Below, in pieces: positions 1 through 3,230 of a stretch of 30,441 nucleotides of DNA (position 1 is its first letter; the number at the start of each line of letters is the position of its first letter). A program made the position numbers and the translations under genes. Where the stretch lies: positions 1 through 30,441 of the forward strand of contig JBEQLE010000052.1 in assembly GCA_040326155.1 (NCBI GenBank), in the 5' to 3' direction. The notes under the pieces were generated by a model, which was given only the letters and a program-made list of their open reading frames with translations, did not search any database and was not told the DNA's origin. Origin of the DNA: Leptospirales bacterium (GTDB lineage: Bacteria > Spirochaetota > Leptospiria > Turneriellales > JAOUFE01).

Positions 1-231
1 GTGAGTATTTGCGACCAATACTTGCTTCACTTTATTTTGAATCAAATCAGTAAAAGCAAAAGTATTGGTGGAAGCTTCAACGACCACATAAGTTTCATGA
101 TCCAATAGGCTATAAAATCTTTCCAGATCTTCAGCAACAAGTTCAAAACGATACCTTTGTTTATTTCCTTCCTCATCCAAGAAGCAAATATTAAACCTGT
201 TCGAATGCAGGTCAATTCCGATAAATCTCAT
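1..231 (-). CDS. IS110-family transposase/recombinase, N-terminal 77 aa (runs off window)
   Basis: Manual minus-strand translation from ATG at 231: MRFIGIDLHSNRFNICFLDEEGNKQRYRFELVAEDLERFYSLLDHETYVVVEASTNTFAFTDLIQNKVKQVLVANTH. GIDLH (D7), VVEAS (E52) and VAN motifs fit the RuvC-like DEDD domain of IS110 enzymes. Strong AAGGAGG RBS upstream. Not in the ORF track. Confidence 0.92.
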   Translation of the reverse strand, partial: MRFIGIDLHSNRFNICFLDEEGNKQRYRFELVAEDLERFYSLLDHETYVVVEASTNTFAFTDLIQNKVKQVLVANTH

Positions 232-265
232 ATGTTCCTCCTTGATTTTTTAGATACATTTCATT

Positions 266-428
266 TTCATACGTCTATACGGGTATCGCCCGCCGACCAA
301 GGTCGGCGGGTGTCCCAAGAGTTTAATACGAACAGGCCGCTAATCGTTATTACGGGCTTATAATATCCCAGAGTCTGTGCAGCCTGATACTCTATGGTCA
401 GAGTATATTTGTCCTGAAACGTATCAAG
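266..428 (-). ncRNA. Putative IS110 bridge/seek RNA
   Basis: Minus strand folds into a 5' hairpin (387-406), loop domain A (stem 379-386/333-340, inner GGG/CCC) and loop domain B (stem 327-332/266-271, inner GC hairpin 281-316). Both domains share the scaffold ACTCT(T)GGGA...CCCGTAnnnACG. Confidence 0.7.
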
Positions 429-431
429 GAC

Positions 432-437
432 ATCATA
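432..437 (-). promoter_or_regulatory. Orphan -10 box (TATGAT) at IS left end
   Basis: TATGAT on the minus strand a few nt inside the predicted end, with no good -35 at 17-nt spacing (TTCGGC). Fits IS110 promoters that are completed at the circle junction. Confidence 0.5.
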
Positions 438-526
438 AAATCGTTATGTGAAGTGCCGAATTAGTAAAAGTCGATTATTCTGTTAGCAATGAAAATACAA
501 TCATTCAGTCCATCATGCAATAAAAG

Positions 527-1114
527 TCAAATTTCTTTGGGATAAAAATAACCTTTAATACACTCAGTATTTCTAACACAGATTTGTATATGATTTTTAT
601 CTCGGAATCCAGCATTAAGGTAAATTTCCTCTCCCTCAGTAAAAACTGATCTTACTGTGTCATATTCTTTAAGGCCACTTTCTAGGCGCATAGTATGTAA
701 ATTCTGTATTACTGCACAATCAAGATTTCTTTGTAATGGGATTTGATCAAGATGCAAAGGATCGGTGTTTTGCGGAAGTTCCGTTCCAAACTTATTATGT
801 ATATTAGCTAGGAAGTTATAAGATGCTTTTAGCTCGTCAACATACGACCTTTCCAAAAGGTTTAAACAAAAACCTAGATCGATTATTGCACCAATGACAC
901 CAATTTTCTTTTTTATTGTTTTACGTTTGAAATTTTCTTCAGCAAACTCTTTGGCTCTCAATGGATCATTTTCCCAAAAATAGATCCCGTTCCCAAGCCA
1001 GTCATATGCGTTTTCGCTGGGATTTAAATTTGATTTTTTATCAATAATATGTTTAACTGTGGTAATGTCAGTGCCGTGGTATCCTAGCACTAAAGATGGC
1101 TGTACAGTATTCAA
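527..1114 (-). CDS. Hypothetical protein, putative ADP-ribosyltransferase-fold toxin
   Basis: 195 aa with LGYHGT and DWLGNGIYFWE motifs resembling the H-Y-type ART/PARP-like catalytic core. Lies 7 nt downstream of a small partner gene. Confidence 0.6.
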   Translation of the reverse strand: MNTVQPSLVLGYHGTDITTVKHIIDKKSNLNPSENAYDWLGNGIYFWENDPLRAKEFAEENFKRKTIKKKIGVIGAIIDLGFCLNLLERSYVDELKASYNFLANIHNKFGTELPQNTDPLHLDQIPLQRNLDCAVIQNLHTMRLESGLKEYDTVRSVFTEGEEIYLNAGFRDKNHIQICVRNTECIKGYFYPKEI

Positions 1115-1121
1115 GATGATA

Positions 1122-1286
1122 TTACTTAAACTGCTTCTTCAGCGCACCATTTTTTGTATACATTCCAGTTTGATATAGAATGGCATTCGCATCTTGCTGT
1201 GTCATGGCTTTTTTCTGTTTGTCTGCATATGAAGCCAGCAAATCTATTTCTTTTTGTTTTTCCTTTTTATCTGATACTAACATCAT
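1122..1286 (-). CDS. Small 54-aa protein, putative antitoxin/partner
   Basis: ATG at 1286 preceded by GAGG RBS, a better start than 1382. Sequence MMLVSDKKEKQKEIDLLASYADKQKKAMTQQDANAILYQTGMYTKNGALKKQFK. Confidence 0.6.
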   Translation of the reverse strand: MMLVSDKKEKQKEIDLLASYADKQKKAMTQQDANAILYQTGMYTKNGALKKQFK

Positions 1287-1305
1287 TTCCTCTTCTGCTT
1301 CCAGT

Positions 1306-1343
1306 ATTATACTATGAAATCTTGCAATTGACCAAATTGTCAA
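1306..1343 (-). promoter_or_regulatory. Cassette-internal promoter with palindromic operator
   Basis: Perfect TATAAT (1311-1306) and a TTGAC-N6-GTCAA palindrome (1328-1343) over the -35 region. Confidence 0.5.
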
Positions 1344-1596
1344 CCACATTTTTGAATGTTTAACAAGATAAACTGCTCTCAAAAAAAGTATGGTATTACA
1401 TATTTTTTTTGAGAGTTGATGATTTATCAGGTAAATACTTAGAGAAAGTTATCTATTCGGCATTTCGCCTAACACTTCTTGTGCCAATTACCAAAAACCA
1501 CTGCATGTTTGCATAAACAAACCGCTAGATTCCATGAATTTGTATCCTTACTCTCCCCATTGAAAATTCAATATACCCAACTAATTTTCATATGGA

Positions 1597-1620
1597 GTAG
1601 GGCGGTCGCATTCCGAACTG
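1597..1620 (+). repeat. REP-like dispersed repeat (GTAGGGCGGTCGCATTCCGAAC)
   Basis: 1603-1619 is an exact 17-nt reverse complement of 13512-13528, and the repeat starts with a GTAG tetranucleotide. Confidence 0.55.
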
Positions 1621-1741
1621 TTTTCAGATAGAATAATATACCTTTACGCTTCGAAAATACCCCTCTCGTGGTCGGCCTGATTTTTCTTTTTCTTGTCGTC
1701 TGGTCTCAAGAAGGGGAAACTCCCGCAAGGTCGTTCGTTAA

Positions 1742-2188
1742 ATGGATATTGCAAAAAATAAAAAAGCGTATTTTCAGTATGAAATACTGGAGGAAGTGGA
1801 AGCTGGTATTGTCCTTGTGGGTAGTGAGGTGAAATCTCTGCGTTTAAAAAAAATCTCTTTGACGGAGTCTTACGCGGTATTCAAGCGCAATGAACTTTAT
1901 CTGTTGAATGCCAGAATTGAACCGTATACAAACAGTACCACATTTAACCATGACCCGGTGGCTTCTCGAAAGTTATTACTAAAGAAGAAAGAGCTTATGA
2001 GGCTCAAAGGAAAGCTGGCCGAAAAAGGGTGGGTTCTGGTGCCTTTGAAAATGTACTTTAAATATAATCGGTATGCAAAGGTCTTGCTGGGGCTCGGCAA
2101 GGGTAAGAAAATGTATGACAAAAGGGCTGTTATAAAAGAACGTGATCTAAAACGCGAAGCTTTAAGAGAATTAAAAGATTATAAGTAA
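1742..2188 (+). CDS. smpB: SsrA-binding protein SmpB
   Basis: NKKA..Y, EAGIVLVGSEVKSLR, RKLLL and GKGKKMYDKR motifs. Confidence 0.98.
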   Translation: MDIAKNKKAYFQYEILEEVEAGIVLVGSEVKSLRLKKISLTESYAVFKRNELYLLNARIEPYTNSTTFNHDPVASRKLLLKKKELMRLKGKLAEKGWVLVPLKMYFKYNRYAKVLLGLGKGKKMYDKRAVIKERDLKREALRELKDYK

Positions 2189-2256
2189 TTGCTGCGATTA
2201 TAGGACTCTGCGAGCGGAGCGGGGACTTTGTTTACCGGTTCGGTGCAATTTTTACT

Positions 2257-2274
2257 GGTGGGGAATTTCCGACC
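2257..2274 (+). repeat. Dispersed repeat GGTGGGGAATTTCCGACC
   Basis: 17/18 match to the reverse complement of 27766-27783 and similar to 27817-27834. Confidence 0.55.
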
Positions 2275-2432
2275 TAAAAAAGTCTAACAAAACTTCTCAA
2301 CTCCATTTCTCACATCTAATTTTTGGTCTAATTTCTAGAATAGCAGCGAAACCTGGTATTAAAGGTGGGTAATTTCTCATCAGCATTCACCAAATTGACT
2401 TTAATATTTCAGGTTATGGCCGACAATGAATT

Positions 2433-3230
2433 ATGGTACGCTCACTCTGGACATCCGCATCGGGAATGGTTTCCCAACAGTTTCAAATTGATACGATAGC
2501 GAACAACCTTGCTAACGTTAATACGACCGGTTTTAAGAAAAGTCGAGTCGATTTCGAAGATCTTGTATATCAACATCAGGTCTTGGCGGGAACACCTTCC
2601 ACGGCTGTTTCTGAAATTCCTACCGGGGTGAACGTAGGTCATGGTGTGCGTCCAGCGGCGACGCAGAAAATTTTCAGTACAGGGTCGCTTCAGGGTACTA
2701 CGAATAAATTTGACCTGGCAATTACCAACGCAGTTGGCTTTTTTAAAGTGAGAATGCCGGATGGTTCGTTTGGTTATACCCGAGATGGTTCTTTTAAACT
2801 CGATGGTAACCGGCAAGTCGTTACCAGTAACGGTTACCTGTTTGAGCCACAGATTATTTTACCAGATGGGGCTATAAAAGAAAGTTTCAATGTGACTGAA
2901 AATGGTGAAGTTTTTGTAAATATTGGGGCAGACCAGAATGCTACTTTAATTGGACAAATAGAAACGTATCGGTTTGTGAATCCCGCTGGTTTAAAACCCA
3001 TTGGAAAAAATCTGTTTCATGAGTCCGCTGCTTCGGGACCGGAAATGGCAGGTACTCCAGGGTTAGATGGTTATGGTTCGCTTATGCAGAGTTTTCTTGA
3101 AATGAGCAATGTGAACCTGGCCGAAGAGATGGTAAACATGATTGTCGCTCAAAGAGCTTATGAGTCGAATTCAAAAGCGATACAGACTTCCGATTCGATG
3201 CTGGCGACTGCTATACAACTTAAAAGGTAA
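2433..3230 (+). CDS. flgG: Flagellar basal-body distal rod protein FlgG
   Basis: ANNLANVNTTGFK, YTRDGSF and LEMSNVNLAEEMVNMIVAQRAYE motifs; 265 aa. Confidence 0.97.
   Translation: MVRSLWTSASGMVSQQFQIDTIANNLANVNTTGFKKSRVDFEDLVYQHQVLAGTPSTAVSEIPTGVNVGHGVRPAATQKIFSTGSLQGTTNKFDLAITNAVGFFKVRMPDGSFGYTRDGSFKLDGNRQVVTSNGYLFEPQIILPDGAIKESFNVTENGEVFVNIGADQNATLIGQIETYRFVNPAGLKPIGKNLFHESAASGPEMAGTPGLDGYGSLMQSFLEMSNVNLAEEMVNMIVAQRAYESNSKAIQTSDSMLATAIQLKR

Follow-up and report, generated by a model that had tools for sequence, protein, structure and literature searches.

The window analysed here (bases 1-30,441 of contig C119, from a genome, G000, that is 94.66% complete and assembled in 171 contigs) begins inside an element of the IS110 family, which runs on the minus strand from position 441 to the contig start. 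It is considered probable, at roughly 0.7, that this copy occupies a repeat of its host and not a demonstrable integron attC site, the insertion being RNA-guided and located at the CG of ACATAA-CG-AGTCTGT. For the window itself the event would thus be an ordinary one, in which an RNA-guided insertion sequence entered a repeat of the host and no integron was parasitised. The sequence-only reading of the same DNA had placed the element inside an attC site and had suggested a lineage parasitising cassette arrays; the former is not borne out, and the latter fails for this copy but seems to hold for relatives at the R' ends of real attC sites in two other genomes (G061 and G063).

Boundaries of the element and its insertion site

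The element, approximately 1.35 kb long, is represented by two assembled pieces—window 441..1, with the left end and the first 77 residues of the transposase, and C114:1-297, with its last 85 residues and the right end of 34 nt—between which approximately 200 residues from the middle of the transposase are unassembled. No single contig of G000 carries the rest of the element complete, and the far end was located by searching the contig tips with full-length transposases of relatives. The following features of the window are concerned:

1..231, minus strand: N-terminal 77 residues of an IS110-family transposase, cut at the contig start (PF01548 and identity to relatives)
232..441, minus strand: left end, non-coding, upstream of the transposase; presumed bridge/seek RNA gene (fold, C161 copy and family comparison)
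442..443, no strand: core CG of the left junction, the second CG being at C114:296-297 (CG at both junctions here, in the element on C104 and in relatives)
443..460, minus strand: the ACATAAC box of the sequence-only reading preceded by 11 bases, TTCGGCACTTCACATAAC; provides the left half-site of the insertion and is also the left arm of an inverted pair (inverted-repeat pattern)

On the minus strand, TTCGGCACTTCACATAAC (460..443) is followed by GA, then by TTTTATGATG..., by the non-coding stretch and by the transposase ATG at 231, the sequence outside the element ending ..TTCGGCACTTCACATAA-CG. The letters and the switch point were described correctly in the sequence-only reading, and the switch is a true boundary of the element, placed at 440/441 because the copy on C161 parts there—its last 77 bases, C161:13953-14029, match window 364-440 at 100%, the identity ending at 440/441—and because the left ends of all 16 relatives compared stand directly after CG and begin with N4-TATGA. 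By the same family comparison, window 443-442 is the core CG and the element starts with base 441.

Concerning the right end, C114:3-257 encodes residues resembling positions 277-361 of the related protein P0001 (70.6% identity, E 5.5e-39); the stop codon at C114:261-263 is followed by ..TTGACGTTCTCATAGACG, and the element terminates at C114:297, the right flank beginning with AGTCTGTAGAATAAG from base 298. The tip TTGACGTTCTCATAGACG is kept in the related element on C104 (..TTGACGTCATCATAGACG), and when 22 loci of relatives were scanned, 16 had its terminal bases CATAGACG. With 210 nt of non-coding sequence upstream and approximately 34 nt downstream of the transposase, the element has the IS110-type layout that had been proposed for it. 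The same core CG stands at both junctions (window 443-442 and C114:296-297) with no other target duplication, the junction on C161 excepted.

This second left junction (L002, C161:13940-14029) lies in unrelated-looking sequence, with the start codon (ATG) of a divergent gene 9 nt away, which counts against the attC interpretation of the sequence-only reading. It reads AATAA-AT-T where AATAA-CG-A would be expected, so that AT replaces the core CG and the first base of the element is missing. It has no right partner in the assembly, two left junctions thus standing against one right junction, and as a junction without CG it counts against the explanation preferred here, which does not account for it. 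The link between the window and C114 is itself inferred, as no read or contig spans the element and C114 could belong to the C161 copy. A sequencing run sharing 8% of the words yielded just fragments of a relative at <95% likeness, none of them across the junction, and thus speaks neither for nor against the link. The DNA of the element had no match in 60 related genomes; nor had the flank 441-1741 in 20 relatives, so that there is no empty site for comparison. G000 also contains a third, unrelated-looking IS110-family gene (L008/L012, C100:34613-35734; 374 aa), located between sequences resembling the 18-mer at 443..460 and GC-rich palindromes, and further IS110-family fragments on C97 and at C161:659-1288.

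Joining the flanks of the window and C114 gives ACATAA-CG-AGTCTGT or, in a longer version, ..CACTTCACATAA-CG-AGTCTGTAGAATAAG... Uninterrupted versions in the same register are present on C81 (..GCCTAAC-AA-GTCTGTAGAATAAG), C83 (..GCATAAC-GA-GAGTGTAGAATAAG) and C58. The site is the junction of a dispersed repeat, at which the end of a '..ACTTCAsATAAC' block meets a palindrome of 105 nt (stem of 16 bp) at its left arm, which is the right flank on C114. Four full copies of the palindrome and one partial copy are found in the genome, scattered singly on different contigs without clustering and without same-strand arrays. The full copies are followed by a second repeat module; the profile has 51 matches in total, approximately 40 of them on the second module alone. 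A perfect empty site ACATAA-CG-AGTCTGT was not found in G000. Among the 113 genomic sites with at most two mismatches to the central 13-mer, five continue with AGAATAA like the joined site, and near-matches to the 13-mer do not exceed base composition, with 5 at one mismatch vs. 7.1 expected.

The second module measures approximately 115 nt (..CTCAACAGATTTTAATCTGCTCAGGCG..TTTCGCATC..), as in L018 (C81:13160-13292), and often adjoins the starts of opposite-strand genes; the C104 element is inserted inside one copy of it, at CCTT-CG-GGTTTCGC. Rfam gave no match in window 1-2500 or in seven loci holding the repeats. The recombinase beside four repeats on C106 is XerD (356 bits vs. a cut-off of 329.6). 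A different dispersed repeat, with 14 more matches of 70-82% identity on 12 other contigs, occupies window 1595-1695, upstream of smpB.

The presumed guide RNA and the transposase

The 210-nt left end (441..232) folds with a minimum free energy of -66.2 kcal/mol (z -4.68), which none of 200 shuffled sequences equalled. The parts of interest are:

272..278, minus strand: AUAGACG of the second loop, identical to the right tip (..CATAGACG); strict pattern behind CCCG in 12 of 14 non-coding ends
333..386, minus strand: whole target loop, with the closing stem CAGGCUGC/GCGGCCUG, two guide strands and the inner hairpin UGGG..CCCG (fold; same architecture parsed in 14 of 15 distinct elements)
342..352, minus strand: 3' strand of the target loop, UAAUAACGAUU, in the same sense as the left flank (ACATAA), CG and the first element bases (4/6 left flank, CG, 2/2 element bases)
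371..378, minus strand: 5' strand of the target loop, ACAGACUC, reverse complement of the core G and the right flank AGTCTGT (7/7 to C114:298-304 in a fixed register)
432..437, minus strand: TATGAT, which resembles a -10 box and is the core of the subterminal inverted repeat (read from the sequence)

The loop of the upstream end matches both flanks, and it is in this sense that the RNA-guided character, already suspected in the sequence-only reading, is supported. The 5' strand complements the right flank throughout; the 3' strand reads like the left flank over ATAA-CG and then continues with the first two bases of the element, its match to the left flank being just 4/6, which counts against the preferred explanation. 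The complement of the top strand comes first in the RNA and the match to the bottom strand second. In the C104 element, the same loop carries wholly different letters that fit its own site, with 7/7 for the right flank, 5/6 for the left flank and 2/2 for the element bases (GCGAAACCC vs. the right flank GGTTTCGC; GCCUUCGAUU vs. the left flank GCCTT-CG-A). A further 12 relatives likewise combine this loop with flanks of their own, the letters of loop and flanks co-varying.

For the family comparison, 80 loci encoding relatives were fetched, and 17 insertions were scored in the fixed register, each flank pair against its own RNA and in 216 cross pairs, which are not independent, kin sharing guides:

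right flank, at least 6 of 7: own 6/17, cross 1/216
right flank, at least 5 of 7: own 10/17, cross 8/216
left flank, at least 5 of 6: own 5/17, cross 8/216
first two element bases, 2 of 2: own 16/17, cross 75/216

Four of the 17 insertions (L025, L027, L034 and one more) are at chance for the right guide, with at most 2/7. The fixed register was used instead of an exact-substring search of the flanks in the whole non-coding end, which was noisy, own and cross pairs being equal at 5-6 nt. It should be noted that the 5' strand of the second loop has no clear complementarity to the left tip of the element (5/7 by eye, and worse in the C104 and L028 elements).

The subterminal inverted repeat is 11 bp long in the C104 element and consists, by eye, of TATGA and scattered matches in the window element. 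Once the ends were joined through one CG, TATGAT would stand 16 nt from TTGACG (C114:280-285) and the two would form a predicted promoter; the corresponding spacing across the predicted circle junction is 17 nt in L028. The course of events may therefore be pictured as follows. An element of approximately 1.35 kb would have inserted at the CG of ACATAA-CG-AGTCTGT, the repeat junction, its target chosen most likely by an RNA that the 210-nt left end encodes; a second loop carries the right tip of the element itself. At CG, the target would recombine with a circular form of the element through strand exchange by the transposase, and the joined ends of this form—predicted to read ..CATAGA-CG-ATTTTATG—would also create the promoter.

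As regards the transposase, PF01548 is matched by the short 77-residue fragment with an E of 0.0075 and 16.5 bits vs. a cut-off of 29. The fragment shares 64% identity with P0001, the best of 13 full-length proteins carrying both family domains (DEDD N-terminal, PF02371 C-terminal), and 49% with the C104 and L028 transposases; taken together, the assembled fragments are 49-71% identical to full-length proteins with both domains. Only 77 and 85 residues being assembled, the region of the catalytic serine falls in the missing middle. Full-length relatives pass the model NF033542 ('IS110 family RNA-guided transposase') with 174 and 150 bits vs. a cut-off of 140. Elements of the L028 type are 49% identical to the window element over the N-terminal fragment and 60% over the C-terminal one. 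The L028 transposase, in turn, reaches at best 28.4% identity among 1009 matching records of plasmid-borne IS110-family members, which are generically named; this sets the lineage far apart from those members. In the alignment A1 of the clade, positions 262-271 of the C104 protein correspond to R--P-V--SN in 13 of 13 aligned transposases; the catalytic serine motif of the family is given in PMC11187229 as G--P----SG.

The site in comparison with integron attC sites

The defining features of attC were taken from passages of Cury et al. 2016 (PMC4889954). According to these, the pairing ends R'' (..AAC) and R' (GTT..) enclose an L box with extrahelical bases, unpaired central spacers and a variable terminal structure of 20-100 nt, and an attC is called where the genome has an integron integrase or where at least two sites are clustered on one strand (CALIN). 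The far flank on C114 rebuilds no such site, an outcome that the sequence-only reading had itself named as its refutation: the joined 382 nt contain, on both strands, 0 RYYYAAC and 0 GTTRRRY. In the DNA fold of the joined site, the box ACATAAC remains outside and unpaired, and the hairpin, which starts 2 nt after it, is a continuous stem of 16 bp plus 3 bp without bulged bases. For an R' partner, the best complement has 2-3 mismatches and none starts with GTT, so only one of the conserved triplets is present. The proposal that ACATAAC is an R'' box opening an attC hairpin is not confirmed; by the geometry of the relatives, it would be the complement of R' (GTTATGT, plus strand). The further claim that the element blocks excision of a cassette is left without basis here.

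An integron integrase (TIGR02249) was not detected in G000, its best score being 102.7 bits vs. a cut-off of 265, nor in any of the 61 genomes comprising G000 and 60 relatives drawn from its family, order and class; the positive controls G061 and G063 scored 387.6 and 399.6 bits. In G000, an integrase could be unassembled, given the 94.66% completeness and the 171 contigs. A covariance model (R1) was built from 12 attC sites of G061 and is narrow (effective sequence number 1.07), 150 of 1997 first-look candidates having been scored; with E<=10 it gave 0 matches in G000, 15 in G061 and 50 in G063, which is weak evidence owing to the narrowness of the model. It should also be pointed out that most of the real attC sites of G061 would fail the strict RYYYAAC/GTTRRRY pattern.

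To the right of the insertion, the window continues with the following features:

527..1114, minus strand: gene for a 195-residue protein between the 18-mers, DUF3990/PARP-like (PF00644 with E 0.0024, below the cut-off; PD-T4-9_A with E 4e-4)
1122..1382, minus strand: gene for an 86-residue protein, 7 nt upstream of the former (no family in Pfam, NCBIfam or PADLOC)
1456..1473, plus strand: inverted partner of the 18-mer, TTCGGCATTTCGCCTAAC (15/18 complementary to 443-460)

The two 18-mers point inward and bracket this unit of approximately 1 kb with its two minus-strand genes; their complementarity of 15/18 compares with 3-12/18 between the start and the end of 11 real cassettes of G061. The pattern has two matches in the window vs. 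0.20 expected, and 3 of 100 shuffles reach two, a figure that is generous because the pattern was written from these two copies. ACATAAC itself deviates from RYYYAAC at one position and, as a single 7-mer, is at chance level. Neither the logic of a cassette nor the insertion sequence explains the inward 18-mers. A Xer/dif-like site (..CATAA..TTATG..) was considered for them and dropped, the symmetry of the arms being weak. Sequences resembling the 18-mers (at most 2 mismatches) stand at 6 other places of the genome, several of them just before the starts of opposite-strand genes. The Atlas neighbours of the 195-residue protein include DUF3990 clusters, and no NCBIfam match was obtained; the two genes may function together in defence or as toxin and antitoxin. 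At C132:21139-21650 there is a partial paralogue. The smpB and flagellar genes begin 270 nt away.

G061 and G063, two Spirochaetia genomes with true integron integrases, do appear to harbour a branch of the clade that hits attC and has its non-coding end upstream. In G061 (loci L028-L031), the integrase at 1,046,544-1,047,479 is followed on its right by 13 attC sites of 107-116 nt within 45 kb, which show the plan R''-spacer-L''..L'-spacer-R' and a bulged G. Two of its four identical elements of 1349 bp lie inside this array, antisense to the cassettes, as ..GCTCAACTTGG-CG|element|CG-TTATGT.., the CG including the G of the R' box; the other two (L029 and L031) lie elsewhere, not at R1 matches. 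The single copy in G063 (L063) abuts an R1 match in the second attC cluster. Thus, R' ends of attC hold 3 of the 5 copies of related elements in the two genomes (L028, L030 and L063), a number nearer to one lineage than to three independent cases, since G061 and G063 share one attC family and one element type. The left guide of these attC-hitting relatives (UACUAACGAUU) differs from UAAUAACGAUU of the window at one base. Among further relatives, L026, L029, L032 and L033 have a canonical GTTRRRY at the junction, and L037 and L039 stand at the foot of long plain palindromes. The arrays of the one attC family extend over L111-L113 (G061:C1:1046544-1094871) and over G063:C1:931795-955938 and 2782136-2826364; in 7 of the 13 attC sites of G061, the R'' position is GTATCAA, not ..TAAC, behind an identical stretch of 36 nt.

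The left half-site CG|TTATGT of the window, identical letter for letter to that of the attC-hitting relatives, counts against the host-repeat reading and leads to the possibility, considered unlikely, that the site is a decayed or unusual attC. GTTATGT (443-449, plus strand) would then be the R' box, the C114 palindrome the L''-loop-L' body and the two-gene unit a former cassette in a genome that lost or never had an integrase, the element, ancestrally hitting R' ends of attC, having recognised the surviving half. Such a history would agree with the antisense position of the relatives at ..GG-CG|TTATGT of real attC sites, twice in G061, and beside the attC-model match in G063, with their left guide only one base off, with the canonical GTTRRRY at the junctions of the four relatives named above, with the block on C81, which reads GTTAGGC 10 nt before a gene start, and with a palindrome on C21 whose ends, GTTGAG..CTCAAC, resemble the G061 L boxes GTTGGAGC..GCTCAAC. 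However, the best R' partner at a distance of 45-150 nt differs at 3 positions here and at 2 on C81, C83 and C58, no AAC triplet lies outside the stem on the far side, and the 16-bp stem is continuous, without the extrahelical bases of the G061 sites. The five palindrome copies are single and on different contigs instead of forming same-strand arrays, the inward direction of both 18-mers is unlike a cassette, their complementarity exceeds that of every real cassette tested, and the integrase is missing from all 61 genomes of the lineage.

That the minus-strand genes form a cassette within an active integron, with ACATAAC as the R'' box of its attC and with the element splitting this attC and blocking excision, is hardly credible. 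The box does contain an AAC triplet, 77 nt beyond the stop codon that closes the 195-aa gene, and GTTAGGC is read on the minus strand upstream of the gene pair (1473..1467); yet the far flank offers no GTT-type partner, neither G000 nor its 60 relatives have an integrase, the nearby smpB and flagellar genes leave no array, and the attC-hitting relatives occupy the R' end and not the R'' end. It is also quite improbable that C114 is the right flank of the C161 copy, in which case the true right flank of the window copy would be unassembled and the reconstructed site wrong. Although there are two left junctions for one right junction and both contigs stop inside the element, the left end in the window carries the exact complement of the C114 flank (7/7), joining the window to C114 restores the register of the uninterrupted copies, and the C161 flank joined to C114 gives no such block. 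The insertion of the window copy into a junction of the host repeat remains the preferred reading.

The clade and its relation to described elements

Based on the results for all the relatives together, a broader reading can be put forward tentatively, at somewhat less than even odds. The elements would form an undescribed clade of the IS110 superfamily, characterised by the motif R--P-V--SN, the core CG, the right tip CATAGACG, subterminal repeats of 5-11 bp and an upstream guide RNA with the IS1111-type order of guides. Some members would be natural parasites of attC, which they would enter in antisense orientation relative to the cassettes, at the CG adjoining the G|TT crossover of the R' box, and the window copy would be a naturally re-aimed descendant that kept the attC-type left guide (..AUAACG) and had its right guide swapped for the foot of the host palindrome. 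If the re-aimed descent is true, it would mean a half-by-half reprogramming of a bridge RNA in nature. The pairs of loop and flanks from this element, the C104 element and 12 relatives constitute a small natural series of reprogramming. From the relatives in G061 and G063 it would appear that attC has been colonised by a lineage of insertion sequences with an upstream guide RNA, entering at the crossover point of the integrase; should this lineage be independent of the IS1111-attC group, attC targeting would have evolved at least twice in the superfamily. Full-text literature searching found no account of an attC-hitting lineage with an upstream guide RNA, which is not proof of absence.

The IS1111-attC group (ISKpn4, ISPst6 and ISPa25), described by Siddiquee et al. 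2024 (PMC11187229), shares with the present elements a transposase of the IS110 superfamily, a target-matching RNA from a long non-coding region and subterminal inverted repeats; as in IS1111-type RNAs, the complement of the top strand lies 5' of the match to the bottom strand. In that group, the non-coding region is downstream of the transposase, whereas it is upstream in the window element, and the motif is GL-P----S(T)G instead of R--P-V--SN. Members of the group stand in attC at a fixed place, which is true of the relatives L028, L030 and L063 but not of the window copy. Rare IS1111 relatives with an upstream non-coding region are also mentioned there (PMC11187229); one of them, ISMtsp17, would be a precedent for such a move.

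IS621 and the IS110 group (Durrant et al. 2024, PMC11208160) have in common with the window element an RNA from the left end, upstream of the recombinase, two internal loops for the target and the element's own ends, a core dinucleotide at both junctions covered by both guides, and a promoter split between the ends, which for the present element is predicted from the hexamers. They differ in that the core of IS621 is CT instead of CG and its subterminal repeats are of 2-3 bp vs. 11 bp in the C104 element (PMC11208160), and the transposases of the IS621 branch have 315-330 residues vs. approximately 365 here. The order of guides is opposite to that of both IS621 (PMC11208160) and the IS110-type ISEc21 (PMC11187229). 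An upstream RNA with the top-strand guide first thus differs from the experimentally studied IS621 and ISEc21 and bears on how general the rules of bridge RNAs are. Finally, the REP-targeting ISPa11 and ISPpu10 (PMC11187229; bioRxiv 10.64898/2026.03.19.712850), which use a host repeat family other than the present one, resemble the window element in that they insert at a fixed position of an intergenic host element that is repeated and may fold.
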